A DNA stretch of 64,000 bases from positions 25,110,001 through 25,174,000 of the forward strand of contig OZ076416.1 of assembly GCA_964187785.1 (NCBI GenBank), written 5' to 3'. Shown here in pieces: positions 1 through 51,753 of this stretch. The translations under genes were made by a program, and so were the position numbers. A model generated the notes under the pieces. The model ran no database searches, had not been told where the DNA came from, and saw only the letters and a list, made by a program, of their open reading frames with translations. The stretch is from Amphiscolops sp. MND2022 (Eukaryota). Position 1 is the stretch's first letter; each line of letters starts with the position of its first letter.

Positions 1-3000
1 CTTGTAAAAAGTTTATTAGTTCTTGGTGGTTTGTATCAAAACTAAGTATGAAAGAATCTGTATCCATATAATGTAAATGTATTTTATTTTGCCAATATGG
101 TTGTAATTTGTTATAATAAAATTCATACATTAATAGTTTTGATAGTTCTAGTACTGTAAAACCTAAATAAATTGGTTTATCAAAGACTGTTTTTTCTTTA
201 TCAAACTTGTACACACTAAACATGGAGTAGTGATCCATGATTCCTTTGAAACTTAACTTGGATTGTCTTTTTAGTATTTGATCTATTTGAGAATGATCAA
301 TGAATTCTAGATTGGTTCTATCTCTTACATTTTCCATTGTCTTACCAAAGAAAGCATTGTTCATTAATTTATAAAGATCCTTTTCAAAGTTTGTTTTCGC
401 TACTGTGCGTTTCTGAGTATTATGATCGATATATTTACCTAACCATGGACTTTGTTTAAACTTATAGATAGTATGTATCTTCGGTACTTTCATCCCTTGG
501 TTAAGATAAAACTTAAACATCCTACAATGTATCATATATTTCGATTTATTGGTTACATCACACATAAGTTTTGGGGTTGGTTTGTAATTAGGTTGATTTA
601 CATTATTCATATAAGCTGAGAATAAGTCTGGATCTGCTTTTGTTTGATACGGACAAAAAGGAAAGTTTTTGGTTTTTTCTTTAATTTCAACTGGATATTC
701 TAAATCACATTCTATAAAGAATCCATATTTATTATCAACTGGTATTTGTAATAAATCTTCTACTATTTGTTCTAGTTCATACTCTTCTGGAAAGTTTAGT
801 TTTTCAAATTCACCAATAGGAAGATATTGACTCATTGCCCATCCATACTAATTATTTGCATCGATATATAAGATTTGTTTATTTTCATCAGATTGCACGT
901 GACGATCTCCCATTACACTTGAAATTCCTCCACGGATATTATTTTCTAAGAGTAATAATAATTCTTTACCGGAGGCGCTTAGATTTTATATAGTCTAACT
1001 TTATATTAGTCAACTTCAAACCTGCTTTCCATGTATAACCAGGTAGACTATAAGAGTACAAGGGATTAATTTTATAATCTCGTGTAGAACTTTCCACAAA
1101 GTTTTCAAATACATCAGCTAATTGAAGAACATCCATTTTTAAATATAACATTGTTAATTCTCTTCCATTTTTAATTTTATTTTTATCAATTAATTCTTGG
1201 GTTCTTTTTATATCATCATCTGATGGATAAGATTGTGTTAATGTTGACCAATAATCTTCTTTGGTTAGATTTAATGGTTCCTGAAAGTTATCAAGATTTA
1301 AGTATTCATATGGATAAGCTAATTTCTTTTTGAATAAATCATCACTCATTCCTTCCAATTTCATGATAGGAAAATTGTCTAAACTCTTAACTAATTTATC
1401 TAAACTGGAAGAAAGAAATCGGTATGAATCTAAGAATCTCAAACAACCTACTTGCACACTAACATAATTTTCCAGTGATTTTGGAATTATCGTTGGATTA
1501 TAATTTTGATTGTATGCTTCGGTTAAAAGTTCTTCAATTATAAGATGACAATCATACCCAGAAAAGTTATGGAAAAATATAGGAACAAAACTTGATGACC
1601 TTTGTTTACAATTTATGTTACATATATTATGAGCTGCTCCTCTGTATTTTCCTGTTAGGTGATCATGATCTCTTACTTTACGTAATTCTGTACTTTCAGT
1701 AAAAGGTTGTTCACAAAGCCAACACTCTTCTGCAAGTTGAAATTGTACTTCTTCTTCTTGATTTATTTCTAATTCTAAATTTATTTTAAAATAATTTGAT
1801 GCAATTTTTTCTAAAGTCAACATTTCATTTACAAACCATTTAGTACAATCTGTTCCAAAGTATGAGCTGTAATTATTGCCAAATGGTGAAATCTGATAAT
1901 ATCCTACTGCAATAGGAATTTGTTTAAATAATACTTTGGGGTTATTTTGAGGTTGATTAATACATTCAAAATCAGCATATACTCTTATTGGTACAGGAAC
2001 TTTCATATAATAATCTTCGAACTTTACCTGATCTTTCCAACTGAATGTGATTTTAGTTGGTTGCTGTTTTTGACAACGATCTATATGATCAATTAGAACT
2101 GGTTGTGAACTAAATGCTGTTAAACATCTTCTACATACATGTTTCATATGTGAGTCTTTATTTATTAAACAATGCAACTTTGTAATTAAACAATAGTGAT
2201 TTTGATATAATAATAAATCTATTTGTGGTTGATCATAGTTCGTATTTATATGGATTGGTGTTAGCAGATTTCCTGTGAGTTCGAATACATTTATGCAAAG
2301 CACCTTCGGTATACAGCATTGTTGACCTCCAGTACTTAATCTATTTAAATTTTCAAACTTGGGAATATCTTTGACTTTCATAGGGAATTCTAAACCTTCT
2401 AGGTTGAATTTATCAAAATGTTTTGAATAACTCGATGTTATATTTTTATTATCCTCAACAGGATATAAATATGCTAGGATACACCATAAAAACAATATTG
2501 ATCATTATTTTTTATATATATTATTGATTGGCTGTTTTTATCTTTTGGTGGTAACTCAACCCATGAACTAGCTTGGATATCATTAACTTTATATATTTCT
2601 AAAATAACTTCTTTAATTTCTTGAAACACAAAACCTGATCCTTCTAATTGTTCATCATCTAATTTATGTATTAATGTGTTATGAGTATCTTGTTGTGTGT
2701 GATTATATATTAGATCTGATTTTATCCATCTTTTAAATACTTCTTCTTCTCCATTGATTATTTTTGAAAATTTAGCTAGATAACTCAATTGATATTTACA
2801 TCGAGGGAAGAACCTTTTATTTAATAATTCATTTATATGATCTTCGAGATTACTAGTTGGATTTGTTTTAAGTTTAATGTATGTATTTTCATTCATAATT
2901 ATTTCTACTCCATTACCGAAATTTTGCATGTTTTCCCGTTGACGGTTTTGACGGTTTTGTAAATGAATTTCACTTTGGAAATGTCTTGTTTTATCAGATA

Positions 3001-3232
3001 TATATCTATTACAATCTTCACACCAAACACGTCGTTGTTCGGTTTTATTTTTATGTTCATCTGAATTTAGATGACTAGACTTACCTAATAAGGGCATATA
3101 CAACTTACATTTTTTACAATAATATTGATTTAATTTTTCAAGATGTTTCACTGGTTTATAATGATCAGACTTGAAAGCTTTTTTGTAATCAGAATTACAA
3201 ATACTACATTTCTCCAAATTCTCCATTTCCAT
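1..3232 (-). pseudogene. polB: Polinton/Maverick/adintovirus-type protein-primed family B DNA polymerase, frameshifted; C-terminus runs off the left edge
   Basis: ORFs 2474-3232 and 966-2495 are joined by a 1-nt shift in a T-run near 2490 (CFLWCILA). Manual translation of 1-965 continues with ENNIRGG, YIDANN*YG, YKLMNNAFFGKT and YMDTDS (PolB motifs A, B, C). An endonuclease-VII-like CWLC..DHDHLTGKYRGAAHNICN segment and three N-terminal Cys2His2-like motifs are present. Confidence 0.9.
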
Positions 3233-3419
3233 TTATTAAAGAAAAAATAGTTTAATTAAAAATTTTTCAATTATGATTTTTCAAAAAATTGGTGAAAAAT
3301 ATTTTAATTTTGTGGTGTTAAGGTATTAAAATTTGCCACAGATTTGAATGATAAATACAGCTTTGCTGGTATTGCATATTTCATTTAAGAAAATTTTTAT
3401 AATCTGTAATCAGAAACTC

Positions 3420-3810
3420 AAGACCTTTCCAATGATGTATCACACATGGTAATATCTTGAACTTTTATAATCTCTACATGTTTAAGGGTTTCAGGTTTGA
3501 GATGGTATAGTTTAAGTTGTGGGTGCCCGATCATGAAAATATTCAAAATCTGTGATCTCCAACTCACGACCATTCCAATGATGTATCATACACTGTGATA
3601 TGTTGAACTTTTATAATCTCTACATGTTTAAGGGTTTCAGGTTTTTCGAAGTTTCAGTTGGTATACATTTGTACTATGTTTTTGAATTGTATCTAGATAG
3701 ATAGCCCTTGTCAAGACCTTTTCAATGGTATATTATACTTTGTTGTAACTCAAATATTCGTTGAGTTATGGCTTTTTTCCTGACCTATTAGTAATCTCTA
3801 CATGTTTAAG
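3420..3810. repeat. Degenerate direct repeats (about 150-bp period) upstream of polB
   Basis: CCAATGATGTATCA..TTTTATAATCTCTACATGTTTAAGGGTTTCAGGTTT occurs at about 3428-3498 and 3574-3645, with partial copies near 3714 and 3792. Confidence 0.7.
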
Positions 3811-4185
3811 AGTGAAAGTCTGAATGGAAAAAGTTGCCACTTGAGTGCTTTTCAAGTGGTTTTTGACCCTTTAATCTTTTTCAAAATCACTTTTCTCGAA
3901 AACTATATTAGGTAGAAACATGAAATTTTCAGGGTAGACTACTTACGGTATGAGCTAACGATTGAAACCAAGACCGCCAACCTCCGACTATTACCATGGT
4001 AAGATGGTAAGTGGTATGCTTAAACATGTGGAGATAGGTTATAGCAATGTTTACATATTTGAATTTATTAATTGGTAGAAGTTTTGAAATTGAAAAAAAT
4101 CAAATAATAAGAATTAATTGATTTGAAAGGTTACATTGTAGTATAGAAAGCACCTTCACCGAGTTAATTTACCGTTCAGTCATTG

Positions 4186-4572
4186 TTAAATAATTTGTTT
4201 TGGTATGCTGGGACCCGCCAGGGCCTTCTCCTCTTCATCTTCCTCGTCCCGTTTCCGCTTTTCTGCTCGTTCTTTTTTGATTTTGCCAGCTTCTTTCAGT
4301 GATTTTAACTGCATTTTGTACTGACGTAAACCATTGTACTCTTTTATCAACTTTCGTGTGTCCTGTAGAATGTTTTCCATGTTTTTTAGATTTCGCTCCA
4401 ACACCGCCACATCCAGAGGGGCTTCGCTGACAAACATTTCTTTACAAACGTCCCAAAGCTTAGGGCGAAAGAGATGCTCTTTGGTTGAATCCGCTTGAAT
4501 TTGAGCATATAGATCATTCATTTTTTCTTTCTTTTGGTTTATTCTTTTCACCAGTTCTTTCTTGTTACTCAT
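4186..4572 (-). CDS. Hypothetical 128-aa basic/charged, probably coiled-coil protein
   Basis: Intact ATG ORF with higher GC than the flanking polB region and a K/R/E-rich C-terminus; no recognisable domain. Confidence 0.35.
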   Translation of the reverse strand: MSNKKELVKRINQKKEKMNDLYAQIQADSTKEHLFRPKLWDVCKEMFVSEAPLDVAVLERNLKNMENILQDTRKLIKEYNGLRQYKMQLKSLKEAGKIKKERAEKRKRDEEDEEEKALAGPSIPKQII

Positions 4573-4620
4573 TTTGCTTCAACAATTAATCGATACGGAA
4601 TTCAATACTGAACTGATTGT

Positions 4621-4763
4621 GTCTGGTTTTGGAAAATACTGAACTGTTTGTATCTGGTATTAGAAAATACTAGACAGCTCTGTCTGGTATTAGAAAATAC
4701 TAGACAGCTCTGTCTGGTATTAGAAAATACTAGACAGAGATGTCTGGTACACTGTCTGGTATT
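4621..4763. repeat. 30-bp tandem repeat (three near-perfect and one to two degenerate units)
   Basis: TCTGGTATTAGAAAATACTAGACAGCTCTG recurs at 30-bp spacing from 4651 to 4740. Confidence 0.9.
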
Positions 4764-5192
4764 TTTTCTTTGATTTACGTCTGCCAAGAAATTTTGTGCG
4801 GTGGTTGTTTTATCGACCAGTTGTGTTTTCCACTTGAACGCACCGAAGGCGCTTTGCGTATTTGTTATTCCACTTGAATGCTACTTTCTTTCCAAAAATT
4901 TTTGCTTCACAAATTTTCTCTATTACCATCCACGGCAACATAGAGGTTAGTGAATTTTTGCTTCATGAGAAATATTTTCCACTGGAAAAATTTGCTCATC
5001 GATTTTTATTTTGTTAATTTTTTAGTTGTGAAAAAAGGCTGATTTTTAGATGGTTTGATTGGTATTTTGTGAAAAAGATTAATTTTTTAATGGTTTTACG
5101 AACTTGAATATTTTTTATTTTTTAATAGTGAAAAAACACCGAATTTATCGATTTTTTTTTGGAAAAAATGCTTAAATTTAGCGTTTTGATTA

Positions 5193-8100
5193 TCAAGAAC
5201 GGGAATTCGCATTCTTATTAGTATTCAATCGACGCACAATATAATTGTCATTGGACAGTACTGTCTGAACGACAAAGGGGCCAATCCACCAGTATTCCCT
5301 GAATGGGATTTTTGATGCTTGGTTATCCGCTTTAGGCTGTAAAACGAAGCAATAATCCTTCTCTTTAAGCGGAGCCGCTTTGGCCTTTCGGTCGTAATAG
5401 TCTTTGTACTTTAAATAGGACTGCATAATGTTCTTTTTAGTCTGGTCGATGAAGATTTGTGTCCTCTGTTGTACTTCTTCCGCAAATTCCGTAGTTGGCA
5501 AGAAATTTTTATTGGGATTATTTCCCAATTTGTGATCTAGGACGTTAAAAGGAATTCTGCCATGAAAGACTTTACTCGGCTCACATCCAATACTGGAGTG
5601 GTATGTAGTATTGTAGTTGAGCACGGCCAATGGCAAATATTTATGCCACTGACGTCGATATTCCCCTGAGGCCATTTCCAAGTTGGTCTTGAGTGAGGCG
5701 TGCGTCTTCTCGAGCTTGCCAATTGTTTGCGGGTGCTTTGTAGTGGCGCATTTGAGTGTTATGCCCAAAATTTGAGTTATCTCAGCTATGGTGGTTGATG
5801 TAAATGCGGACCCTTTGTCCGTAATAAGAGTTGTCGGTAAATGTGAATGTTTCGTCATAATGTCTATTATTACTTTGGCTACATTTGTGGCTGTCGCCTC
5901 AATTAGCGGGTAGGCGAATAGGTATCTTGAAAAAACATCAATAGCTGTCATTACTGTTTGGTAGCCGCCACTGGTCGGTAGATTTGGTAACAAATCAATT
6001 TGCATGGCGTCTTCAGGACCGAGGTCTCATTCGGGCAGATTTAGCAATTCTGGTGTAATAGTATTATTAGGGACTCTCTTGTCTCTGGCACGCGTTTCGC
6101 AGCCTTCTACCCACTTCTTGACATGTTTAGCCATTCCGGGATAGTAGTATTTTTGGCGAAATTCTTGTAGCATTTTAGATAAGCCTGGGTGTCGGTGTGC
6201 CGTGCCATGTATTGCTTGTAGTATTTCTTTCAACAAATGTTTTGGCAGTAGAATCTGGTGGTATTTGATTTGGCCTGTTTCATCATAGTATTTCCTTGTC
6301 ACAATTTCGTCGTTGAGGACTATTCGGTCTAGGTTATTCAAATAATGTCTATACCGAATGTCTTGCTGCAAGATTTCTTCAGAGTTTTCCTCATTCTGAT
6401 ATTTTGCTTTTAATTGAAGCAAGATCGGATCTTTGGATTGTTCTACCAGTATTTGGTTAGTTCTGCGTAGTTTCTGCGTGAAATTAGTAATTTCTTCTAC
6501 AACGTTTTCGGATATGGCATCAATCTGGATGACGGTCTCGGCGACCTTGAGTCCTGCTTTCGATTGCTTTTTTCGTTCCCAAATTTGTTCTTCCGTTTCA
6601 TTGTCTTCCTCAGTGAAGAATACTTGTTCCTCTTCGGACACACCGGCCGATTGTACATTGACCTCAATAGGTTGTGTTTCAACGTCCGCGCGAATCTTCA
6701 GGACTAACTTTTCAGTAGGGTCCATTTCCATACGGGACAGGTAGTCGGCCGCTGTATTATTTTTGCCTGGAATGTGAGCGATAGTGATATTGAACTGAAT
6801 GACAAAATCACATGCATTCCATAATGGCGGCGGTATGATCTTGGTCTGGAAGAACCTTGTGACCGATTTGTTGTCCGTAAGGATAATTACCGGTTTGGGT
6901 GTCCCCCAGAATATATGTCCGATTTCTTTAAATGCGTAATATATAGCGAGAAATTCTTTCGCATATATCGACATTTTGAGTTGGGAAGGAATAAAAGTTT
7001 TCGAGCCATAAGCAATAGGCGCGTAGGATTTCTTGATTGATTTCTGGTTTGGGTCGTCTTCAGTGAGTATAGCGTATCCTGCTGCCGTGAAGCTGGCATC
7101 TGTCATCAGGACTAGCTGTCGATTCGGCAGTGGTTGCCTCAAGGCTAACTGGTTACATCGATCCAGGTCTCTATTGATTTCGTTAAATTGTTCGATTAAC
7201 TCGGATGTCACTAAGACTTTCTCGTCCTTCTTGAGTAGTTGAAAGAAGGGTACCAATTTTTCTGACAGTCTCGGTATGTAGTTTCTGTAGTAATTGAGGA
7301 ATCCAAGGTATCTTTGCAAGGCCTTTTTGGATTTCGGGAATTCAGTTTTTTCTAGGAAGTTTGTAATGCTTTCCTTTTGAGGCTTGACGCCCTCGGGGGT
7401 GATTGTTCTTCCCAGAAAGTCTGTTTTGGTCGCACCGAAATGGCATTTGTGCATAGTCAATTTTAATCCAGCCTCTGTAATGCATTCAAATGTGGCTCAG
7501 AGGTTTTTGATCAAGTGTTCAGCATCATTTGCCGCTATGCCAATGTCGTCGACATATTGCGCACATTGATCAACCTTGATAACTCGGTCCAAGTATTCTC
7601 TCATAAAACTGGAGAAGGCCGACAGGGCTCTTTTGAGTCCTTGAGCCAATCTTCTGTAAGCAAAGGTTCTGCTGGCAAAATTGAAGGCCAACATTTCAAT
7701 AGACCTTTGGTCTGCCGTCTGAAGGCAGTGATATGCCTGTGAGCAATCGAGTTTGCAAAAAAACTTCTTCCCGGCCATATGTTGCGCAGCGTCCGTCAAG
7801 GTACTAACTGGGTGGTTATTATTAATATAATCATCGGAGATCAAATTATTGATCTTCCTAAGGTCTACTAATAACCGTAGCTTCCCAATGGGCTTCTTTT
7901 GCGCAAAATAGGACTGGCGTGTTTTGAGAATGGTAACGTGGTTATGATACCGTATTTGTGGAGTAACGCCAACTCAACCAGGATATCCTCTTTTAAATTG
8001 ATGGCAGTCGGTAAGCTTTGGCTAATGGCAGGTGAGTCGTCCTTCGGGGTCAGTTTGACCGTGAACTCCTCATTCATCCCAATATCAAACCTATGGCGGG

Positions 8101-9737
8101 CGATAATGTCGTGAAATTCCACTAAGAGAGCTTCTATTTGTTTGATTTCATGCTGCTGTAATATTGAGTCTTTCCAGTCGAAATTACTGAGGAATTTTTG
8201 CCGAGATTCATCATCTTCTTGAGGGTTGAGGCTTTCTGCTTCTTGCAAATTTCGCAGTTCTCTGAGTATTCGTTTTTGTATTGGCGTGTGGGACGCTTCG
8301 TCCGCCGGATTCTCAGGAGTTGGAAACCAATATTCTTCGTATTGGTCGTTGTTGCTGTTGGTTTTTAGAAGGCTGCTAATATAGTGAACAGCGTCTTCTT
8401 CGTTTTCATTGAGTAGGTGCCAGGTGGACACTGGGTCTATTGGCCTGATGTGTTTCATCTGCTCGGGCGTCATTACTGAAAAGTTGGCTATGTGCATTCC
8501 CTTTTTGAGCTTGTAGGGTTGATCAGTGAAATTATTGACGTGTATCCTTGTGGTCCCTTCATCCAGCGTGATTATAGCAGCGCAGAATGTTATGTCGTTT
8601 TCTTCATTTAGGGGTTCACTGGGCTGTAGGATCCCAGTTACAGCATTTTCTGCGTAAATTCTGGATTGGATTGAGACAATTGTGCGGTCATTTGGCGGAA
8701 TTGTTACATCCTCAGGGTTGAGGATGGGTTCCATGACGTTCGAGTATTTGTGGTCAGCCGTGTTCAATTGCATTGAGAAACAAGGAAAATTTAGTATTCC
8801 TTGGCGCATGTCTAGGACTGTATGGTTTCTTTGTAAGAACATACGTCCAATTATAGGCTGGGTAGTTTTTCCATTACAATGAAGATTTCATGGAACTCAA
8901 TGTCCCCCACTTCAAGTTTCAATTCCACGGTACTTTTAGGAGTCTCTAGGTCGCCATTTGCAACCATTATTTGGAAGGATGGGGCAGGTCCCTCTTTGAC
9001 AATGGGTTGGGGCGCTAGTAGCCGTATTTTCCTGAGGTCCGCTTCTGGTATTCACTGGAGTGAGCCCCAGTGTCTATAAGTCCTTCTAGCGTTAATTCTC
9101 CAAAGTCCATTGGAAAGTATAACATCCGCCTTTTGATTTTAAGTCCAAGGTTGGTGGAAAGGGGAACATATGGCGTCTCGCCTTGTTGTTCCATTAGAAT
9201 ATGCAGGAAGGCTGTTTCGTCCAAAAGGCTGTTGAGGCCTTGATAGTCTTCCTGGTGTTGCGGTTCCTCTATTTCTTCTATAAGTGCTTCAGAATTTGGC
9301 TGCCAGAGTTCAATGAGGGCCCTAGAGAGTTTGGTGTCCTCTATCTGGGGATCGTCCTCATCGTCCGTTGGTGGATAGTCGTCACGTCTGAAATGCAGGT
9401 TTTGTCTATCATATAGTTCGTCGTCCCAATACGGGTCTTTGCCGTACTCAGGATCAGGGTACTGAGGGTGATAATCTTCGATCAAGGGTAAAGGTCGGAA
9501 TTGAGTCTCGAAGTCCTTAGTATAGTCAATTTCGTAAAATCGGTCTGGGCGATCATTATGTACTATTTTATAAGTTCGAATACAGGCTTTTTCAATTTGT
9601 TGCTGCCAGACAACGGTGGGAATGCCTTTTGTATCCTCAGTTCTTTGACTGTAGTTGGTTATTGGAGGGTCTGAAATGACATATTGTCGAACTGACATAT
9701 AGTCATGTATTTGGAGCCGTGGCAAAATTAGTTTTTT
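5193..9737 (-). pseudogene. pol: pol of element A (protease, RT, RNase H, integrase), fragmented
   Basis: LIDTGAHS protease (9015-9725 frame), QYVDDIG RT (7497-7844), DAS/KEFLA/TDNK RNase H (6027-7460), in-frame TGA at 6027-6029, then integrase QID..TDKG..LEKTH and GPF. Confidence 0.92.
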
Positions 9738-11417
9738 GAATCAGTCTTTTTGGTATTGGATTGGCTTGAACTAGTAGCCGTCGAGTCACTGGTTGTTTTA
9801 GGTTTGCCTTCCGAGGTTGAAGCATTTGCATCCTTTTGCTCTGTCTGCAGTCTCTTGGGACGCAGGTGGGCACCAGCGCCTTGCCAACATCTTTCAGTTG
9901 AATGGTTCTTTTTCCCGCATGTGTTACATGGTGGGTAAGTTGGACGCTGTGGTTTTTTTGCCATCTTTTTCCTCCATTCCTTTCTTTTTCTTGAGTTTAG
10001 GACAGCTTTTGTAATAGTGTCCCGTTGCTTTACAATAGGAGCATTGGGCACCTTTGTTGGTATTGATGCCATTAGACAGCAAATTGCTCTGATTCGTGGA
10101 CGCCGAGGCCATAGTGGCCATTGGCAAGTCATCTGACTCTTCTAGTGCATTGAGTTCTAATTCTCTTTCAAGATGAGCAACAATTTCTTCGTTCGTTCCG
10201 TTCTCCAACCGGGCCATGTTGACAGATCTTTTTAGTTTTGGTGGAAGTTTCGCGTATAGCAAGCTGTCAATCATGCTTTTGACATTTTCACCAAAAGCTT
10301 TATCAGCCCCTTGGTTCAATTCTTCTAAGAAGTCCGGCAATTTCATGGTACTTGGGTCAAACATCAGTCGGTGCCATTTGTGTTTTGCCGTCGCTTGGGA
10401 TTCCGGTTTAACATACTTTCTCCGGAATATGACCAGTACGTCCTCCAGAGTCTGACGGTTGATGGAATTTATGTTCCTGAACGTCTGTAATGCCCCTTTT
10501 CGTAACAATGAATGAAAAAGATTGATTTTCATCTGTTCCGTCATTGTAGGTTGCATTTTGATCATCGTGTGGAACAAGTCCTCGAAAAGCTCAAATTTTT
10601 CGCTTTTCCCGTCGAATGTCATTGGCGTTGTTTGGACAGGTCTAATGGTCATATTGTGAGGTTTGTTTTGTAAATTGACTAATACATCAGCCAATCTATT
10701 AAGCGGGTCCTGAGATGTCTCCGGGACCTCGAGGTCCGGGGCTGGCAGAGTCGCATCCAGAGAGACATTGTGGTTAGATTGTTGCCTCTCCAGGTTGGGG
10801 ATTGAGTGGATTCGTCCAGTCAGAAATTCAGGGATTTGCTGTTGGGTGTCAATAGCTCCTGTCACCATGTGAGAACTTTGACCCGTGGTTTCTCTTAGAT
10901 CACCAACAGATCGCGAATCCTTCTTTGTAATCTTTATTTCAGGCCCAGATGCGCTTTCCCTATTTTCCTGACTACTAGGGGACGAACTGGCCTCAGTGTC
11001 CCTGTGCCCCGTAGAGGACATTGAGTTAGCAATGTTTTGAATCTCTGGGATGACTCTTTCAGCTATGGTTGCCGTAATGGCTCTATTTATCTGACTATGC
11101 ATCATTGACATCATTGAATCCATTTCCTGGGACAGTCTAAGGTTAAATTCATTTGAGAAAGTTTCAAATGACTGCCTAACTTCGTTTTGTCTCAATAAGT
11201 CATTTTCGTGTAAATAATTTCTATTTTCATTCCCATGGTACGCATTTGTATCAGCGTCCCCGTGGGCCGATGATTGATCTATGGCGTCTGCTAATTCTCT
11301 TTCTAAGGGGTTATTATTTTCACTCCCTAACATCACGTCTAAGTTTTCAAAGTCAGACATCATGTCCATTTCTCTAGATTTCCTGGCTTTTGCCTTTTGT
11401 CTTCTTGTGAAAGGCAT
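9728..11417 (-). CDS. gag: gag of element A, with two CCHC knuckles and one frameshift in an A-run near 9980
   Basis: ORF 9924-11417 (CSYCKATGHYYKSC) continues in frame 9728-10132 (CNTCGKKNHSTERC) and ends ..DSKN*. Confidence 0.88.
9731..9737 (-). promoter_or_regulatory. -1 ribosomal frameshift slippery heptamer A AAA AAC (element A)
   Basis: TCA AAA AAC TAA at the end of gag; the -1 frame is open into the pol ORF (FKKLILPRLQIHDY). Confidence 0.75.
10855..10867 (-). promoter_or_regulatory. Primer binding site of element A (TGGTGACAGGAGC, tRNA-Leu-like)
   Basis: Directly follows the LTR end ..TCTCACA; resembles the complement of a tRNA-Leu 3' end (TGGTGTCAGGAGT). Confidence 0.7.
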
Positions 11418-12375
11418 AAGAAATTGTCACAAGGTAAAGATGTTAATTATCTTCTAACTTGCAAATATGGTGTGATATTACTGTAACAAGTAACTTTAAC
11501 ATGTAGCTTCTTCACAACTTTTGTGTCCTCGGGGCTAAATGTCCCGGATATATATATTGAAAACTACATGACAATCAGAATATGAATTGTCATATTCTAA
11601 AAGTAGCCTTAAGGGCTTTCTAAGAATAGTAACAATTCTAAAAATAGCAACAACTAGCTATTGACGTCATTATGATGTGAGTGACTTCAAAAGAGATTTC
11701 CCGACAGGTGACATGTTGGCGGGAAGCCCTTGTGTCTAGAAGGCATATTAACAGCATACATATACATAAGCAAATTACATGCGTTCCACCATCTTACATA
11801 AGATTTATTAATAGCACGCAACATTTCATTACCATGCGATCTTTCGACACTACGTACCCATTTCATGAGAAATTAAAGGCTTTTCTAAGTTCTGAGAAAT
11901 TGTATTCATCATTCAGCACCTTTAATTCAAAAGTGGACTCAGCGTCCAATAGACACGGCAGTCTTTATTTGTTTATTGACAGGCGGCATATGGCCGTCAA
12001 GTCCTTTAATCAAAGCGCCGCGTACAGTTTTGAATAAGAGCACTGGTTAATTAAATACTGCACTCTGATTGGTTAAGGTTCGTTCGGACTTGCTGTCCAA
12101 GGCGACAGGCGAGGAAACATTTGAACGCATTTTCTCTACCTGTACGCCTTGGTGTCCAATTTACTAGCAACGTACAAATTAGCGCTGGTATTACGTAAAA
12201 TTAAATCATCACTAAATGATATTTTACATTCAGAATAAATAAATTACATGACTTCTGAGATATAAATGCAGTGTATTTCGAACGTTTCAATTTAAAGGGA
12301 TCGTGTTGGGTAGGGCTTTTTGATAGTTATGGCAAATAGAATACAAGTTGCCATCACAGGCGGACGCCTGGGACA
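10868..12375 (-). repeat. 5' LTR of element A (about 1508 bp, TG..CA)
   Basis: Inner end abuts the PBS. The outer end TCACAGGCGGACGCCTGGGACA closely matches the TSD-defined end of the solo LTR (TCACAGGCGGCAGCCTGCGACA, 36665-36686). Confidence 0.8.
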
Positions 12376-12955
12376 GTTTGAAAATTTTGACATCTTCGAC
12401 TTACTTTTTTATGGGAAACACCAAACTAACCCTTTTGATAGTAATGTTAGGAAATCAGCTATGCGTTTTGGTAAATGCTGAATTCTCATACCGACAAAAA
12501 CGATCGAACCGTGTACAAACGATATTCACAACTATAAACCTTTAAAATTCATTCTACATCGTTTTCGGAAACATAAGAAATCCTATTTTTCTATATGACA
12601 GTATGATAAGTAGCGCAGCGTTTCGTCGTTGAACTCCACCATTACTCATTTTCTTGAAAACATCCGCAAATATAAACAATTCGCATAAACCACGAACGTT
12701 GAGGATAAAAACATTTCAACTTTCCTCGTGGCGTGGAATTCCACGTTTTTGTTTTCCACGATCAACCCTAAACTTCAATTTTTTACGTTATATCGTCGCC
12801 GAGCACATCAGCCACGGTGATCGTTTGTTATCAGCTTTTCTGTAAATCTGTTTTTCTAGTTGGATAGGCATTAATTTTTATACTCATCAGCGATTGGATT
12901 TGTTTTTTGTTCAATTTTATTTGTTGATTTAAATGGATTTGTTTCCATTTATGTA

Positions 12956-15298: not shown

Positions 15299-16507
15299 TG
15301 TCATACCGGTTGGTATGAATTATAACGACTGAAGAATGAAGTCTTCACCAACCGACTGAAACATTTAAAACACAAACATTTTAAACATATGTAGATGCAT
15401 ACAATGGACGACTGTACTATGCAGTCGTCACCCCAATTTCACCAATGTCACAAATTACCAGTGTGCTTCGACACTTTTTACAAGAACATATTTTCCTTTT
15501 TCTGTTTAGCAATAACGACTAAAACAGATAGTCGAATTCAGCAACCTTTATGTGCAATATATGAAACTTTCACACAAACGACTGGCATATCCGGTTGTAC
15601 CTTTACTTAAACATACATGCAGTTTTTTATATTTAAATCATCAATAGCCCAATTACTAGAACATCGTTTAGTTCACCAATAGTCATTTTGCATCGTTTAG
15701 TTCATAAATACTCAATCAGTCAAAACTGTGCGAAATTACCAGCAACGACTTCGATCAATAGTCGTCCCTTTGTATTTAATGCTAATTAGAGCAATATTAC
15801 CGACGAACAAATGCAGTAATTATATCCAGCACTTCAATCATTAGTACGCGCTGTGAAGTTACAAGGTAAATGATGCATACTGGTGCGATAATAGAGTGAA
15901 AGTACCGAAGTGGTAATTAACAACGACTGAAGTGACCAGTCGTACGAGATGTACCATGAAGTGCTAACAGCAGGTTAACTAAGTGACCAGTTGAGAAGAG
16001 ACTCAAATAATCAAGTGTGATTAACGAGTAATTACGAGTTTGAAAGTGCTACGATAAGTTAAAAATCCAGAGATTAGAACTTTGCTACTGTAGAATCCAG
16101 TCGTTACTTTAACAAGCGCTTTACAATATTCTTATTCCCAAACTTACACTTCATAATTTAAACTGCTTCAAACTATAACTTTTCAATCATGGTAAATACT
16201 CGGTCGAGATTTAACAGAGAAAGTAGAATCGAACAATCTGGAACTAACAGTTATTCCGATAACGAAGACAACATGAGTGTTGCTGACCATTTCGGTGAAA
16301 ATATCCTGGAAAATGAGACTGAAAATGACATGAGAGAGATAGAGAGGGACCACGAAAATCATAGATTTGAACAACGTTTCTTGGAAATGAATCGCCAAAT
16401 CGGAGAACTTACCAGCATTGTGAAAGCCCTTACTGATAGATTATCGAATAGTAGGGAAGAGAACAACAGAGACGTACTTAACTCAGAGACGTCCGCCCGT
16501 TCTGACA
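15299..16507 (+). repeat. 5' LTR of element B (1209 bp)
   Basis: Direct repeat of 29478-30687 with roughly nine differences seen by eye. Confidence 0.97.
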
Positions 16508-17742
16508 TGGGAACAGGAGTCCTGGCGAAGCCACCGCCTACACCCAACACGCAACCACCAAGAAGGACTCCACATTCATTACTTGATCCACAAATGCGAG
16601 AAGTCATGACTGAAATACAGCACCTCAGAACAACAATGACCGATGGAGTGATCCAGCCCAAAATACTCCAAACACAAGTCCCTCTATTCCGTGGCAACCG
16701 AGAGAAGTACAATGAGTTCGAACACTTGCTCAAAAATCATCTCCGGCCACATATGCACAAACTGACGGAAGAGCAGAAATTGAATTACTTCCAAAGCCTC
16801 CTCAGAGATGACGCCATCGACTTCTGGCAAACCCTGAAGATAATGACCGAAACAACACTCACCGAAATCCTCCAGGCATTCAGCAAGGAATACGCCAAAG
16901 AAGACCTCAAAGAAGTATCGAAGTACAAATTCGATCAAATGAGGTACGACCCAACAACGGAGTCATTTGCCGATTTTCTAACGAAATTCAAAAAATTAGC
17001 AAAACAGGGGTATGGTGACAAAGCCAATGACATAGCTGAAACATTCCTGTTTGCCAAATTACCCATACAAATCCAGAATGAGTTGGCAATGGCAGGAAAG
17101 CACGACGCGACCAGCGAGGGAATTAAGACTTTCGTGCAAAGACGATGCCAATATGCACAATTGCTACCCACCCCTGCAGGGATGCAACCTCTGAACAACA
17201 TCCAGAACTACCCCCCGAAGCAACCAACCAACCAACAAACAACTGCCACCAGCAATCCGGGGAAACCAACAGCCAATAAAGAAGTCAAACGAAAATTCGA
17301 AGGCAACTGTAGATACTGCAACATTGTTGGACACAAGTGGATTGACTGCCGAAAACGCCTCCGAGACGAAGCAAACGGAATCCACACAAAAACTTATCAA
17401 CGCACCCAACAGGACAATAACAACCAGCAGCCTCAGACTGACAAACCCCGATACAACTCGAAGCTAGTGTGCCAAATCTGCGGCAAAGTTGGACACTCTG
17501 CACGAGACTGCAGAAACCGAGTCCCAGGTGCATCAGCATACCAGAATGTACCTTATCAAAAACAGTCCACAACGGAGAACCGTGAGTTCCGACGAGATTT
17601 CCGACAATCCCAAAACCCACGACAACAACCACAATACCAGGTATCACAAGCAACAAGTGAGACCAACCAGACCGAAGTACATAATGACTGTTACGACGAG
17701 GATTACAACGAAGAATTCAACCAGAATTCAAAAAACTTGTAA
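16189..17742 (+). CDS. gag: gag of element B (517 aa, two CCHC knuckles); first 106 codons lie inside the LTR
   Basis: Intact ORF with CRYCNIVGHKWIDC and CQICGKVGHSARDC; capsid-like region aligns with gag of element A. Confidence 0.92.
   Translation: MVNTRSRFNRESRIEQSGTNSYSDNEDNMSVADHFGENILENETENDMREIERDHENHRFEQRFLEMNRQIGELTSIVKALTDRLSNSREENNRDVLNSETSARSDMGTGVLAKPPPTPNTQPPRRTPHSLLDPQMREVMTEIQHLRTTMTDGVIQPKILQTQVPLFRGNREKYNEFEHLLKNHLRPHMHKLTEEQKLNYFQSLLRDDAIDFWQTLKIMTETTLTEILQAFSKEYAKEDLKEVSKYKFDQMRYDPTTESFADFLTKFKKLAKQGYGDKANDIAETFLFAKLPIQIQNELAMAGKHDATSEGIKTFVQRRCQYAQLLPTPAGMQPLNNIQNYPPKQPTNQQTTATSNPGKPTANKEVKRKFEGNCRYCNIVGHKWIDCRKRLRDEANGIHTKTYQRTQQDNNNQQPQTDKPRYNSKLVCQICGKVGHSARDCRNRVPGASAYQNVPYQKQSTTENREFRRDFRQSQNPRQQPQYQVSQATSETNQTEVHNDCYDEDYNEEFNQNSKNL
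16508..16520 (+). promoter_or_regulatory. Primer binding site of element B (TGGGAACAGGAGT), variant of the element A PBS
   Basis: TGG directly after the LTR end TGACA; shares ACAGGAG with the element A PBS. Confidence 0.65.
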
Positions 17743-24158: not shown

Positions 24159-27100
24159 CTAGTACTCCTCCGAGGACTCACTCATCAGGACTCTTGACAA
24201 TTTCTGCTTTACGACCTTCTTAGACGCCTTGGTAGACTTAGATTTGGCACGCGCTGTTGCTTTCTTGCCTTTACTGCCACGTGAGGTAGAAGGCAAACCG
24301 ACATCCTTTTGCGATTTTGGAGCTTTACCCCGAACGACATGTCGACTCAACGGCTCATCATCGTCGACGGAAAACGGAACAACAGAACCACGAGATGTAA
24401 GTTTCCGGGAACGGCTTTTCAACTGAACCTTAGCACCGTCGACACCGCTCTTTAACTGTGCACACACTGCTGACCGGTAGTCGTCCACGGAGATCACTGC
24501 TGACTCTACAGTTCCCTCATTGAATACCTGATAGCACCGGGACAACACGTCTTCGACTCCAACTTTCAGCAGCTGATCCCAGGGTCTTCCTCTTTCTGGG
24601 TCTGTTAATCGCGAAACCTGCATGTCCGTTGTCTCACAGTGACGAAGGAATTAATTCACTCGCGCCGCCAACCACGCCAGCACTTGTCCAGCTTCGCACC
24701 AAGTTCATACTGGACAGCAACTGTCCTTGGGAGAGAGCAGTGACACCGACATCTAAGAAATCAGCAACATACTGGCTGCGTGCGGAACAGCAGACGACAA
24801 TTTTAAAAACAGTCAGCAAATCAGCACAGCGTGACCAGAAAGGGTACGAGCACCACAAGTTTATCACATCATCCACCACACGTCCGGAAGACGACTGACA
24901 GCGCCAGCGATGAATGAAATAGTTGTACACAACATCGTACTGCTGAACGACCTTTGCACCTTGGGCGTCAGTAAGGAAACACAGACGGGTCAACAGCAAG
25001 CAACAATCCATCAGCGAATCCACGACTCGATCCTTAGAACGTCGAAACATGGCCTCAGGAGCAAAAGCAGACAGATTCCGTCTCCCTGCGTTGTCTGACT
25101 GATAATCGGCTACAAGGTCCTCACAAAGCTTAGCTAGAAACAACTGAAGCTCGCGATAGAACACACGCTGCTGGTCGAGAACGTCAAAACGGAAGTACTG
25201 CACGAACAAAGCCTTGTAACGCTCCTGTGAAACGGTACCAAGATCGACAGGCCTCGTACTTAGAAGGCGCTCGTGGTCGAAGGCAGCAGGAACCTTGTCA
25301 GCATCCTGGATCATGCACCTCAGGCGTCGTAGGAAAGCAACAAACTCTACTTCAAAGCACAGGTCACGGTCCCGACTGTAAGTACACCCTCGAGGAAAGG
25401 ACTCCACTACTAAAACAAACAAACCAAAACGACATCATTGCGGATTTACCCTAAATAGCCCCCAACCGTAACGAAAAAACTTACAAAAAAAATAAAAATG
25501 ATGATGACACAACCAATTTGCTTCACAAATTTTCCATTTCAATGAACATCGCCGCAAAAAAGATATATACCTGCGAGAGAAAGGATAACAAAAAACAGCA
25601 ACCTATTGATTTATACTCACCTTCATCTAGTAACCATCTCAACATGGCCATCTGTGGCCGAGCCAAACGGTCATTGAATATGACGACACTCAAACTAGGG
25701 ATCGATCTCAGCTCCACCATGGAACCACTGCATTCATTGCCGAAGTAAACAGCCAGATCGTCCCACCGTTCGACAAGCTCCCCACACACAGCAGCCAATT
25801 GTGGTAGAGTCAAGTCGTCACTGTGCACATACTGCAAACAGAATAGCGATACTTGCACCTTGATCCATGAGACGAAAAGCAGGAAACGACCGAATACCCT
25901 AGTCCTACTGCAACAATCATAGGTTTAGTTTACACACACGCTAGAAAAAGTTAACACACCTTAGATATTACACACCTACAACACTTATACCAAAAGAAAG
26001 TACCTGACGTAACAAAGGCATTCTGTCGAAGGCCGATCCATTGACCACGCTTGACAGACGATATTTGAGAAACTCCAAAACATTGTAGGGATCGAGACCT
26101 CCAATTCGTTGCCGAAATTGCTGTCGAATGCTGCGCTGCAACCACTGCACATCGTAAAAGCGCATCACAACAGACTTGCCAGCAGGTCCAAAATGAGCCA
26201 ATGACCGACCGACAGCGACGTGAGTGTCCACTACCACACTACAAAGGCTAGGCAACGGATCCAGACAAGACAATACCGTCACAGTTAGCCGAATCAGCTC
26301 CCCTTTCCAGCGATCGCAAACAGGCCATGTTACAAGGGTCACCGTCCGCAATTCCACGTCGTCCACAAAATGACAGTCGACCCGCCAGAAATTCCCATCG
26401 AAATACACACGTAGCCCCACTTGATTGCCCGCTTGCACGAGGCTGCCCATTTTCTCCATGATGTACGGGAATACCCCGTACAACAACAAGCTCTAAACAA
26501 CACATAACGACATAGACCACCCATCAACCAAACACACATCACACCATGTAACATACAAGTCCTAGCACATGTAACATATATGTAAAACTAGAGAAATACC
26601 CCCCCCCCCCAGAAAACATCATCACATGTAATACATGCACAAAAGGCTATGGTACCTGACAATTCGGAACGGTAAGGCTTCGAGCTACAAAGTTCATCTC
26701 TCCTAGCAAACTGCCAGTCCACCCATCCATGAGTCGCATCAGTGACTGAAATCCAATGACTGCCCCAAAACAGTTCAAAAAGAAGCACAACCACAGATAA
26801 GCAGCACTTCCATCGGGCAAAACCGAACGAGATCCCTCCTCTTCCACTTCACGTTCAAGAGCCACGCGCTCCTCTAGAGTCAAACTGATTGGCGACTCTA
26901 AATAGACTGGAGGCTCGACCATCCGATCAATTCGTATCCGATTGTCCTCCTCGGCAGAAACGGGCCGACACGATTTGTCCAACAACGGACGCTGCGTCAT
27001 GATGCGGAACTTTTGCTCCAGTCGGGTATGTTCCGCACCCTTCCAATGCCCCCACAGATTCTGAAGGCCACGACCCGCGATACTTAAGTCCACACGACAC

Positions 27101-28565
27101 ATGAGGCAACGCGCAAACACGTCAATGATACGTTTGTGCCGCGGAAAGCCAACAAACAGCCCAACCACATTCGACACAAAATAGGATGGCTTCAGCGTGT
27201 TGAGCCTCTTCTTCCTCACTAAAAAACACACACCGAAAAGTCACACCCAAAGAATTTATAAGAAATGTCTGACCTGTCTCTCCCAATAATTACCTTGGCT
27301 TACCATAGAAAAACGCGAAAAACCACACTAGTACCTACACTACCTTCCAAAACGAAATGATAGTAGAGATAGTCTTAACACTTAAGCTTAACCCCCCAAG
27401 TTAGTACAACATTGCATGTGATCTTGAGAATAGTTACCAGGTCTTGGAGCTGCGGACGTCCCGACAACAGGATTCTCAACTGCAGCAACCGAACCAGGCC
27501 CACCTGAACACAGTCGGCACGTGAGAGCTAGTCCCGGAGACACTGCGCACAGGAACGGTACCGTGACTGGTCAATTCCACAGAAGACAACTCGATGGAAG
27601 GAGTGAACCCACGAGGCGTCCCATCCACACGCTGATTCCCGATGACCTCTTGCAGCGCAGTCTTGAAAGTGTGCCAGAACTCATCAACACGAAGAGCCCC
27701 AACAGTCCCGATTTCCCCCAAAGAAGATTCCAGAATAGCTTTGGTCAACTCCCGAACGCTTTTTTCCATTCGGGCCTCTACACGACTCAGAAGATCGTCC
27801 AAGGACAAGACAGCACAGTCCTCGACACCTAAAACCAACCTGACATTCTAGATTATCGCAAATTGATTAATTCCCTAACCAACTGAAGCTAATTCTACGG
27901 CGACACACAACACACCAAGGTCATACATGTTACGCGAACCTACAGGAGTGTTAAACCAGAAGAACTAACGTGCTACTAACCTAATTGAGATTCCATCAAC
28001 TGATGCACTTGCTCGCCCAAGACAGCTGGAGGAGCCTCACTTGTTTGACCACCCCTCTGCGGGAAAGCACGGATGTACTCCAACAAGGTCGACACGTCTA
28101 CGTCGCCTACGACCCGAGAAAAAAAAACAATGAAACAACCATCTCACCACGATACCCCCTAGAATACACTAGCGCCCAAAAGAATTACAAATGACTGGAC
28201 CACTACGATGCAGCGCCCATACTCCCAATGCACAAATCCGGGAAAAATGGAAGAAAAAGACTCGAGCAAAAGAAAGTAGTCACTGACAAGTGACGACGAG
28301 AATGATACAAAAAATAGTACTCACGGAAGTCTTCAGATAAAGCAAGTTCTAGCAACTCGCTCATACCCCCTAGGGATGACGAAGTCACACGCCCAGCGAA
28401 CTGACAGCAAGGCGGGTTTAAATTCGCAGCTTCTGTGGCCAACGCTTCTTCAGACGATGACTCGATACTCGAAGCCATTTCTTCAATATCCTGATAGCTT
28501 CGTTCGGCAAGGGATACCAGCGACCACAAATCAGGATCAAAGGAGGAACCGCCCAGATCGGACAT
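24159..28565 (-). CDS. Inferred 7-exon antisense gene inside element B: BED zinc finger plus hAT-transposase-like protein (about 1,090 codons; two frameshifts in this copy)
   Basis: Exons 28565-28325, 28106-27981, 27828-27438, 27218-26656, 26492-26004, 25831-25621 and 25409-24159, all bounded by GT..AG. C-x2-C-x16-H-x5-H motif in exon 4. See findings. Confidence 0.72.
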
Positions 28566-29477: not shown

Positions 29478-30687
29478 TGTCATACCGGTTGGTATGAATT
29501 ATAACGACTGAAGAATGAAGTCTTCACCAACCGACTGAAACATTTAAAACACAAACATTTTAAACATATGTAGATGCATACAATGGACGACTGTACTATG
29601 CAGTCGTCACCCCAATTTCACCAATGTCACAAATTACCAGTGTGCTTCGACACTTTTTACAAGAACATATTTTCCTTTCACCTGTTTAGCAATAACGACT
29701 AAAACAGATAGTCGAATTCAGCAACCTTTATGTGCAATATATGAAACTTTCACACAAACGACTGGCATATCCGGTTGTACCTTTACTTAAACATACATGC
29801 AGTTTTTTATATTTAAATCATCAATAGCCCAATTACTAGAACATCGTTTAGTTCACCAATAGTCATTTTGCATCGTTTAGTTCATAAATACTCAATCAGT
29901 CAAAACTGTGCGAAATTACCAGCAACGACTTCGATCAATAGTCGTCCCTTTGTATTTAGTGCTAATTAGAGCAATTTTACCGACGATCAAATGCAGTAAT
30001 TATATCCAGCACTTCAATCATTAGTACGCGCTGTGAAGTTACAAGGTAAATGATGCATACTGGTGCGATAATAGAGTGAAAGTACCGAAGTGGTAATTAA
30101 CAACGACTGAAGTGACCAGTCGTACGAGATGTACCATGAAGTGCTAACAGCAGGTTAACTAAGTGACCAGTTGAGAAGAGACTCAAATAATCAAGTGTGA
30201 TTAACGAGTAATTACGAGTTTGAAGGTGCTACGATAAGTTAAAAATCCAGAGATTAGAACTTTGCTACTGTAGAATCCAGTCGTTACTTTAACAAGCGCT
30301 TTACAATATTCTTATTCACAAACTTACACTTCATAATTTAAACTGCTTCAAACTATAACTTTTCAATCATGGTAAATACTCGGTCGAGATTTAACAGAGA
30401 AAGTAGAATCGAACAATCTGGAACTAACAGTTATTCCGATAACGAAGACAACATGAGTGTTGCTGACCATTTCGGTGAAAATATCCTGGAAAATGAGACT
30501 GAAAATGACATGAGAGAGATAGAGAGGGACCACGAAAATCATAGATTTGAACAACGTTTCTTGGAAATGAATCGCCAAATCGGAGAACTTACCAGCATTG
30601 TGAAAGCCCTTACTGATAGATTATCGAATAGTAGGGAAGAGAACAACAGAGACGTACTTAACTCAGAGACGTCCGCTCGTTCTGACA
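29478..30687 (+). repeat. 3' LTR of element B (1210 bp)
   Basis: Direct repeat of the 5' LTR, followed by TSD CCTAC. Confidence 0.97.
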
Positions 30688-34901: not shown

Positions 34902-35795
34902 TTAGTTGTCGCAATCTATTGAGATCTCCCTATTCAAACCTCTATGACTGCTGAATTTTGGATTTTTCTTGATGTTGTTTTGTTGGTCTTGCGGGCCAAA
35001 ATGCTCTCCTGAGTCATTGTCCGGTCTAGTGGACCTGTGGGCCGATACACCACTACAGCATTTAGAGCCTCTGTCTGGTCCTGTGGACCTGCAGTCCACT
35101 TGGCCATATCGGTCTCCTGGGTTTTCATCCAGTCTATTGGACTGGTGGTCCGTTTGACCTGGATAGACTCTTAGGCCCCTATCTAGTTGTCTGGACTGGT
35201 GTGTCGTATGGCCAGATTGATTCCTTCGGCCCTTGATATTTAGTCCTTTGGACCAGTGGTCCATACTATTGGGATGATCTGTAAGGCCCTCATTAAGTCC
35301 ACTGGACTGGTGGTTCATATGGCTAAAATAATCTTCGGGGCTCCTGTTTAGTCTACCGGACTGGGGGTCCCTAATTGTGTCTGATCCCAAATTCTGAACT
35401 CCTAGTACGTTTTGTATGCTAGGAAGTGCCTTTTCAGCAATTGCTGAGTTGATAACTTTAAAAATCTGTATATTTAAGTCACTTCTAATCTCATCTAGTT
35501 TCCTTGTCACTTGTGATGTGATTTCATTATTTATCAGCCGTGCGGTCTCAAGGTTAATTTCACTGTTTTCCCTACTATTTGTATTATTCAGTGACCTGAA
35601 GTCTTCACTGATAGGATTTGCAGTTTGAAGGCCATTAGACTAAAGGTCTAACTCAGTCTCTTTTTCTCCTAACTGACTGTCTAACTCATTTCTAGAGTAA
35701 TTTCCTAACATTATATCCACATTTTTCAAGTCAGACGTCACGTCCGATTGTCTTGACCTTTTCTCCTTAGCCTTTTGCTTTCTTGTTGAAGGCAT
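34902..35795 (-). pseudogene. LTR-borne gag N-terminal ORF (about 297 codons, one in-frame TAG) with about seven 18-aa repeats
   Basis: ATG at 35795 is in frame with track ORF 34902-35510; TAG near 35640 (ELDL*SNGLQ). Confidence 0.75.
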
Positions 35796-36686
35796 TTAAA
35801 GAATTAATTCTTCTGGAGAGAATATATTGAGCTTTTATCAATTAACTAAACTTGAACTGAAAGGAAGTGAAATCAACAGAATAATAGCAGAGATGTGTCA
35901 AAGAGAAACAATTTGTGCTTTTTGGTTTATATCGTTGTATTCAAGGATTTTTGAGTCCTACGGTCTACGGGGGTTGGCTATTTATAGTAAATAGAGCCTT
36001 AGCGGCAAAATATTGGTGGTCATGATTCTAAAAATAGCAACTCTCATGGGTAAAAATAGCCTTGATGTCTGACGTCAATATTACATAATTATTAGGTCAT
36101 ACCTAAGTTAGCATCGGCTGGGGTCTGATTCTTTAAATAGAGCGGGGGGACTGCAAGGCGGTCAGCCTTTCAAGTTTATAGTTGATGGTTTGAATGACAA
36201 GCACTTGTTTACCTAACACTCTATATGTGAATAATACAGCATGGCGGACTAACAGTCCGCTAGACCAGGTAATATTAGCAAACACAGCATATTTGACTGG
36301 TGGTACGTACAACTAGAGAATACTAGCACGTGATTGGCTAATAATCAAAATGGACTGCGCGTCGAACTGGACAAAGTGAATTTCACTTTGAACGCGTTTC
36401 CTTTATAGCATACAGCTTAATTACAGTACCTGTTTCAAGTATCAATCTAACAAGCATCGATCATCTTTTTCTGGTTTACATTAACACTAGTATATGTTAC
36501 ATGTCTAATAACAGTAATCTAAAATAATTTACATACTGAACATACTGATTCAAGTCTAAAAGTTTAAGACAAAGGGACCAATGGTCCAACTAATCACAGT
36601 GGTAGGACTCCGGGTATGTAGGGACAAGTGACTGTCGTTGGGGGCCACTTGGTACTTGTTTCCGTCACAGGCGGCAGCCTGCGACA
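34907..36686 (-). mobile_element. Solo LTR (1780 bp) of a gypsy family related to element A
   Basis: TGTCGCA..TGCGACA termini, TSD TTAGT (34902-34906 and 36687-36691); internal ORF MPSTRKQKAK.. is homologous to the gag start of element A, MPFTRRQKAK.. Confidence 0.92.
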
Positions 36687-39599: not shown

Positions 39600-39810
39600 T
39601 CCTTATCTTTCTGCATGAGTGCCGCGTTTCTTGCGTTTCTTGGCGACAGTGAAATCAGAGACCTTGTCCTCGCCTATAGCCAATCTAGTTCCAGCCCGAA
39701 CGTTGCCAATGCCTACTTTGGTTCGAATCGAGCGCAGTGGCCGAACCAACTCACTTTCCTGTTGCGACCGTCCTCTTTTGTCTGTTTTGGGTGCTTGCCC
39801 GGATAAGCCT
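39600..39810 (-). pseudogene. Degenerate LINE ORF2 C-terminal remnant (RTE/L2-like); second copy at about 47060-47250
   Basis: Minus-strand translation gives RNRKVSWFGHCARFEPK, resembling the WFGHxxR motif. Confidence 0.4.
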
Positions 39811-45439: not shown

Positions 45440-45699
45440 CAGCTTGTGCCGGTCAACTATAGTGGCTGGTTTGAGTAGTCTGTTGGTTTTTTTGTTACTG
45501 GTATAGTGGCTGGTATGGGGTCCCCTACTTTCGTTGCAGACCACGTGTGTGTGTCTTCTCCCTCCAACATGATGATACACATGGCACTTGATTGATGACG
45601 AAGATCCATGATATCTGATAGAGAAAAAAAATTGTTTAGGGTTAACTTGTTCTATCGTTCAACCCTATATTGTTTATTCAAAGTATAATTTTAGTTGCA

Positions 45700-51466: not shown

Positions 51467-51753
51467 CCTAATTTTTTTGACCTTTATATCATAGCAGCTT
51501 GTGCCGGTCGACTATAGTGGCTGGTTTGAGTAGTCTGTTGGTTTTTTTGTTACTGGTATAGTGGCTGGTATGGGATCCCCTACTTTCGTTGCAGACCACG
51601 GGTGTGTGTCTTCTCCCTCCAACATGATGATACACATGGCACTTGATTGATGACGAAGATCCATGATATCTGATAGAGAAAATAATTGTTTAGGGTTAAC
51701 TTGTTCTATCGTTCAACCCTATATTGTTTAATCAAAGTATAATTTTAGTTGCA

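Follow-up and report, generated by a model that had tools for sequence, protein, structure and literature searches.

Some repeat-database entries contain ORFs that start within a long terminal repeat (LTR). In the yeast element Ty1 the LTR is 334 bp long, the RNA starts at position 241 and has a 53-nt UTR, and the primer site occupies RNA positions 95–104 (excerpts of PMC5454406 and PMC4974528). About 41 nt of GAG can be computed from the figures excerpted from PMC5454406 to lie in the LTR; a preliminary description of the present locus had said that Ty1 gag begins in U5 only by a short stretch. In intermolecular first-strand transfer, as treated in an excerpt of PMC6894440, R/U5 from one RNA becomes linked to U3 from a second. 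A window of 64,000 nt from Amphiscolops sp. MND2022, which is the whole stretch of DNA analysed here, was examined together with related copies elsewhere in the genome. Two retroelements (A and B) and a solo LTR are located in this window. The most probable reading, in which we have considerable confidence, is that a single Gag is made from an ATG within the LTR, that its frame continues through the end of the LTR and a primer site for tRNA-Leu, and that the N-terminal third of the protein is reassorted, likely by first-strand transfer.

The window holds no second LTR of element A, and the genome was therefore searched with window positions 10600–12400 as the query. The 3′ LTR of element A was found about 17 kb left of the window (locus L006), with 18 mismatches in 1,508 positions (99 % identity). 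A 5-bp target duplication, CAAAC, flanks the element before the 5′ LTR and after L006, and many genome copies match exactly query positions 26–1533, equivalent to window 12375–10868. The paired 3′ LTR, the duplication and the family copies thus place the LTR end at 10868 (Table 1). The claim that gag starts deep inside the LTR, with 550 nt of its frame there, was borne out by this boundary, as was that of an in-frame ATG at the junction with the primer site, which reads CAC A/TG GTG ACA GGA (slash, LTR end). The gag frame runs from 11417 to 9924 on the minus strand and departs from the family frame past the first knuckle, giving 497 aa versus 562 aa. Four of the five end differences in the LTR pair are private to the 3′ copy. 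A mutation-free stretch between the two LTRs (−118 to +477) was considered as a signal and rejected, being absent from other LTR pairs. The integrase of element A is split by a large A+T-rich insertion that occupies window 1–5190 and extends about 15 kb leftward; one piece of it matched Pfam Endonuclease_7 (E 8e-05), another had no Pfam match, and one ORF carries what we take to be motifs of a protein-primed DNA polymerase B (presumably Polinton-like).

Table 1. Positions of retroelement features in the window
Feature	Position	Strand	Remarks
5′ LTR of element A	10868..12375	-	1,508 bp, TGTC...ACA; paired 3′ LTR and CAAAC duplication; family copies end at same base
TATA-like box	11548..11556	-	From sequence; 139 nt upstream of gag ATG; putative function
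Out-of-frame uORF	11443..11502	-	19 codons, read from sequence; presumed leader; uATG at −85
LTR-coded gag of element A	10868..11417	-	550 nt (183 codons plus 1 nt); ATG at 11417; phase 1
Junction ATG	10866..10868	-	Final A of LTR plus TG of primer site; internal Met; use as a start not supported
Primer-binding site of element A	10856..10867	-	12 nt complementary to 3′ end of host tRNA-Leu (CAG/AAG); codes M-V-T-G
Post-junction gag of element A	9924..10867	-	Linker, capsid domain, CCHC knuckle
pol of element A	5193..9698	-	Decayed, several pieces: PR, dUTPase-like, RT, RNase H, integrase; interrupted by large insertion
dUTPase-like domain	7868-8842	-	Flanked by PR and RT; E 4.9e-05
5′ LTR of element B	15299..16507	+	gag ATG at 16189; 319 nt within LTR; phase 1
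Primer site of element B	16508..16519	+	Two mismatches private to window copy
3′ LTR of element B	29478..30687	+	106-codon gag fragment; frame continues 27 codons into flanking DNA
Solo LTR, related family	34907..36686	-	ATG at 35795; 889 nt to LTR end; duplication TTAGT

Element B is flanked by a CCTAC target duplication. The length and phase of LTR-coded gag first given for it (319 nt, phase 1) hold, but the GGA ACA GGA read after its junction ATG is a private two-base decay, other B copies having TGGTGACAGG. For the solo LTR, the 889 nt from ATG to LTR end was confirmed, but the ORF is interrupted by a stop at codon 52 and falls 21 nt short of intact relatives (910 nt). That three divergent LTRs keep the same phase is also correct; they are not independent witnesses, however, since element A and the solo LTR share an N-terminal peptide and all three share one capsid lineage. 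In element B, the region separating pol from the 3′ LTR contains antisense ORF pieces (window 24159–28565, minus strand), four of which were tested and had no Pfam match, and window 39400–56400 comprises a tandemly duplicated block of several kb with 92–98 % identity.

Pfam matches in element B occur in the order PF13975, PF00078, PF17917/PF17919, PF17921, PF00665 and PF22938, corresponding to PR-RT-RH-IN with RNase H and integrase families of Gypsy type, and not to the PR-IN-RT-RH order of Ty1/Copia. Element A has the same pol pieces in decayed form plus a weak dUTPase match. Judged from sequence, by pol order and by RNase H and integrase families, the elements belong to the Ty3/Gypsy (Metaviridae-type) lineage. 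The best solved match of the RT in a PDB similarity search was the PR-RT 7kse (E 1e-28), followed by Ty3 RT (E 3.5e-16); entries of the 7kse type are, we assume, from foamy virus. Paired TG...CA LTRs, a target-site duplication, a tRNA primer site and a purine-rich tract ahead of the 3′ LTRs, all expected of LTR retrotransposons, were found. The post-junction part of Gag is predicted to have a capsid-like fold: all Foldseek matches listed were capsid proteins, with none at E 0.001 (best 0.077, probability 1.0), and element B has CCHC and Retrotrans_gag Pfam matches.

The 3′-end pattern of tRNA-Leu had 846 matches in the genome, and three of the eight loci inspected were called as tRNA-Leu genes. 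Of 90 sampled junctions, 88 had a contiguous match of 12–13 nt to this tRNA at the primer site, one had 14 nt and one 18 nt. Two loci (L078 and L174) have the full 18-nt tRNA-Leu complement in place of 12 nt, with the tRNA copy open in the gag phase, which is likely a trace of primer copying. Elsewhere, tRNA-Leu-like 3′ ends form a large tandem array with a spacing of about 296 bp (contig C8, 35.59–35.64 Mb and beyond).

A junction-spanning 14-mer was present in 7,527 exact genome copies, compared with one for the reversed control. Phase was determined in an unselected sample consisting of the first 90 among the matches listed, all on contig C1. At least 95 codons were open upstream in phase 1 in 69 of these junctions, at least 200 were open downstream in 58, and both applied to 51, while none of the 90 was open on both sides in phase 0 or phase 2. 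Open-frame elements from all loci (n=79) fell into 13 families, defined at 80 % post-junction identity, with 310–910 nt of gag in the LTR. Phase conservation, which the preliminary description had proposed to check, was observed as one phase across all 13 families. The 3′ LTR was sought for 20 chosen representatives and had the same CA end in 16 (13 exactly and three with one chance extra base); among the other four, one was ambiguous by a few bases, one was tandem and two had 3′ LTRs out of reach. All six representatives with the 5′ LTR start in view had a target duplication. A spacer search provided no out-of-phase control group, as 95 of the first 100 among the matches listed had CA followed directly by TGG. 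Six loci (L136, L137 and L194 on contig C1, and L139, L153 and L174) have the same primer site with the gag frame absent on both sides and are likely non-autonomous derivatives minus the LTR frame; L136 and L137 are in tandem, 2.7 kb apart. The Gag of P0128 contains several junction-like peptide repeats ahead of the true M-V-T-G, which suggests tandem duplication of the LTR edge.

Comparison of 30 intact family-A copies, most of them picked by capsid identity and hence enriched for shared cores, showed that 24 combined one post-junction gag (mostly 0–2 differences per 50 nt) with three LTR-ORF types. The three LTR-coded N-termini differ by about 12–20 % in DNA, with up to 15 differences per 50 nt, and the last differences between types are located 16–32 nt ahead of the junction. 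Phylogenetic trees built from U3, from the LTR-coded part and from the post-junction part of gag disagreed (21 of the 30 copies), with 15 rows forming one tight clade after the junction (100/100) and three groups ahead of it. The differences between L093 and L099 extend from about −195 to the LTR end, with U3 and the interior shared, and L099 and L101 show the reverse pattern in U3. Two further families, of 310 nt and 568 nt, whose copies were chosen by junction and not by capsid, also had breakpoints at the edge. In one insertion (L035/L056, duplication CTCAG), the ORFs of the two LTRs carry different subfamily haplotypes. Breaks at the LTR edge are those that first-strand transfer predicts, which indicates that the N-terminal third of Gag is reassorted; this is evident as a pattern, for which strand transfer would be the mechanism. 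In some pairs the upstream breakpoint lies about 40 nt ahead of the TATA box and not at the putative start, and several breakpoints fall within the ORF (+182, +350 to +440), so ordinary template switching also acts and the start site is not exactly readable from them.

Gene conversion or ectopic LTR recombination after insertion, rather than reverse transcription, might also have generated these mosaics. LTRs provide long and abundant homology, the breakpoints within the ORF would agree with such an origin, and the differing haplotypes of L035/L056 could represent a conversion tract. However, the same mosaics recur in numerous young copies that are dispersed and have matching LTR pairs, indicating that they have been replicated, and the breaks are near the primer site in three families, so that this explanation is considered unlikely. 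A mixed version, in which mosaics originated by conversion and then spread, is possible.

With strand transfer as the preferred source of the mosaics, the role of the junction ATG can be considered. The LTR ends in ACA and the primer site starts with TGG in 31 of 31 representatives (a sample picked by the CA-TGG pattern), and the ATG is invariant because ACA plus TGG always spells it. Phase 0 across the primer site reads TGG TGA and is closed by a stop, and phase 2 has a stop immediately ahead of CA in 34 of 90 sampled junctions. The shared phase is thus a product of inheritance and constraint and not of selection for a start, and one ancestor crossing in phase 1 explains it. The last LTR codon in phase 1 is N-A-C, and all four residues (Y, H, D and N) were found, indicating that the att end and not the protein fixes these bases.

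Two Gag isoforms, a long one from the LTR ATG and a short one from the junction ATG, had been suggested. The short form, comprising capsid and knuckle, would arise through internal initiation or be translated from an internal transcript, and might act as a p22-like restriction factor. In favour of this reading, the junction Met never varies and G occupies +4. Because this Met lies in a linker predicted to be disordered, ahead of the entire capsid domain, folding of a shortened product is conceivable, and an internal RNA is the source of p22 in Ty1 (excerpt of PMC5408680). The invariance is, however, forced by ACA and TGG, and the −3 purine is not kept, this base being free (5 G, 4 A, 3 C and 1 T in 13 families). 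Between three and 20 AUGs precede the junction ATG (17–20 in family A), which excludes leaky scanning of the full RNA if one reasons as for Ty1, whose upstream AUGs are held to preclude p22 synthesis from full RNA (same excerpt of PMC5408680). There is also no AUG-poor leader ahead of the junction ATG, with 13 out-of-frame AUGs in the preceding 99 nt compared with 11.5 expected, and an intact gag starting only at the junction was present in no sampled family. The suggestion of two isoforms was not supported, and we regard such an arrangement, for which an internal promoter might serve as in Ty1 p22, as distinctly improbable.

Evidence that the LTR part encodes protein comes from selection. The dN/dS test called for in the preliminary description detected purifying selection, with values of 0.06–0.16 in 20 of the 21 subfamily pairs of family A (the remaining one was saturated) and of about 0.06–0.45 in other pairs where estimable, compared with mostly ≤0.05 in the capsid core; these pairs are not independent and derive from open frames only (79 elements). 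Variable sites in the LTR part were distributed over codon positions as 60/49/141 of 183 (eight representatives), and indels were about tenfold fewer in the LTR ORF than in the upstream LTR (57 versus 581; 31 pairs). Indel length modulo 3 was rejected as evidence of coding, as the 38 shifting and 19 in-frame gaps include artefacts of DNA alignment and open frames were preselected. Differences between 5′ and 3′ LTRs were near neutral (44 non-synonymous and 16 synonymous, pN/pS 0.68), and this decay after insertion indicates that selection on the LTR frame acts during replication. Selection, phase and the ACA/TGG junction together uphold the proposal that att end, primer-binding site and gag coding are superimposed and mark the LTR ORF as real coding sequence. 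The LTR-coded part has a basic N-terminus, a long predicted helix at residues 67–135 and a disordered linker spanning the junction. AlphaFold gave pLDDT 84–94 at residues 81–130, with an overall pTM of 0.25 and low confidence outside the helix, and dimer prediction for the helix gave a score (0.02) that speaks neither for nor against a dimer. It is scarcely credible that the LTR ORF is fortuitous and goes untranslated, with Gag truly starting at the junction, as the lack of a Pfam family for the LTR-coded part (best E 0.07) and the low model confidence beyond one helix would allow, given the dN/dS values and third-position bias, the deficit of indels relative to the upstream LTR and an ORF open in 69 of 90 unselected copies.

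Selection on the LTR part, and the presence of only R/U5 at the RNA 5′ end, suggest a start site upstream of the LTR ATG. In element A, transcription may start about 30 nt downstream of the TATA-like box, as positioned from sequence. A similar box is present 120–240 nt upstream in most families; none was found in the B clade, and the 560–580-nt clade has a TATA-like word about 280 nt upstream that may be another motif. Out-of-frame AUGs were depleted in the 99 nt ahead of the LTR ATG (one compared with 9.3 expected in 13 families; 0 of 300 shuffles as low). Exceptions to this AUG-poor leader include element A and three related subfamilies, which carry an out-of-frame uORF in the presumed leader; a uATG at −80 to −89 was seen in four of 31 representatives. 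The context of the LTR ATG is weak in family A, with a pyrimidine at −3. A search of the LTRs for a poly(A) signal found no conserved AATAAA. CTA(A/T)4TAG words are repeated upstream of the TATA box (window 11600–11650 and LTRs of L093, L142, L085, L152 and L183); these are presumably MEF2 sites, which would hint at muscle-type regulation.

These observations can be arranged in a model of six steps. The LTR edge, primer site and open frame coincide, as read directly at the junctions, and the LTR part encodes protein, as selection indicates. Transcription would start past the TATA-like box, roughly 100 nt ahead of the LTR ATG, placing the ORF in R/U5 and making the LTR ATG normally the first AUG. 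The junction ATG is forced, by simple arithmetic, from ACA and TGG. LTR-coded N-termini and post-primer-site gag have separate histories with breaks at the LTR edge, as observed in the comparisons of copies. Finally, the primed RNA would serve as template for R/U5 and the RNA packaged with it as template for the interior; each intermolecular transfer would thus yield a chimeric Gag, which the common phase would keep in frame. A further possibility, about which we are doubtful, is that Gag is a two-module protein split at the primer site, in which ordinary first-strand transfer would move the N-terminal helical module, along with the nearby promoter and leader, to a different capsid, and the phase common to the lineage would keep such exchanges functional; the element may thereby diversify the faster-evolving and possibly host-facing end of Gag, and open-ended copies of the module in every 3′ and solo LTR could disturb assembly or seed new host genes. 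Mass production of fragments from solo LTRs was rejected, since 218 LTR ends versus 105 junctions in one young subfamily imply few solos.

These elements show that a complete protein domain of an essential gene, here a predicted helical domain, can reside in an LTR; under the model, the template jump of reverse transcription is then a domain-shuffling step for a capsid precursor, with thousands of natural copies for its study. For annotation, gag predictions that start past the primer site omit as much as one third of the protein or more, and spurious host-gene models arise from 3′ and solo LTRs.

No description of a gag-in-LTR layout in a Gypsy lineage was found in the mainly open-access literature searched, and the excerpts of PMC8396678, PMC13709905, PMC5408684, PMC2582038, PMC3601003, PMC1142308 and PMC9283973 describe no long gag segment in an LTR. 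The rotifer elements Juno, Vesta and TelKA can be likened to the present elements by domain order, with a dUTPase-like domain between PR and RT (weakly matched here), but differ from this lineage in their 159–551-bp LTRs (excerpt of PMC5408684). For mosaics of R/U5 versus U3 arising by first-strand transfer, the predicted product is the same, with R/U5 from one RNA and U3 plus interior from the other; the exchanged part is regulatory in the excerpt of PMC6894440, whereas here it also includes 100–300 Gag residues. The p22/p18 proteins of Ty1 are the model for a short Gag form, but p22 depends on a separate internal transcript and contains the C-terminal half of the capsid (excerpts of PMC5408680 and PMC13709905), whereas no sign of a separate leader was seen at the junction here. 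Ty1, a member of the Pseudoviridae, shares with these elements a GAG start in the 5′ LTR and a primer site translated as Gag (excerpts of PMC5454406 and PMC4974528), and in both the primer site adjoins the LTR end. It differs in the length of GAG within the LTR, about 41 nt (computed as above from PMC5454406) compared with 310–910 nt, or 100–300 codons, and in being primed by initiator Met tRNA, where the present elements use tRNA-Leu and have the order PR-RT-RH-IN. The elements described here therefore have a Ty1-like layout within the Ty3/Gypsy lineage, with an LTR-coded gag 7–22 times longer than that of Ty1.
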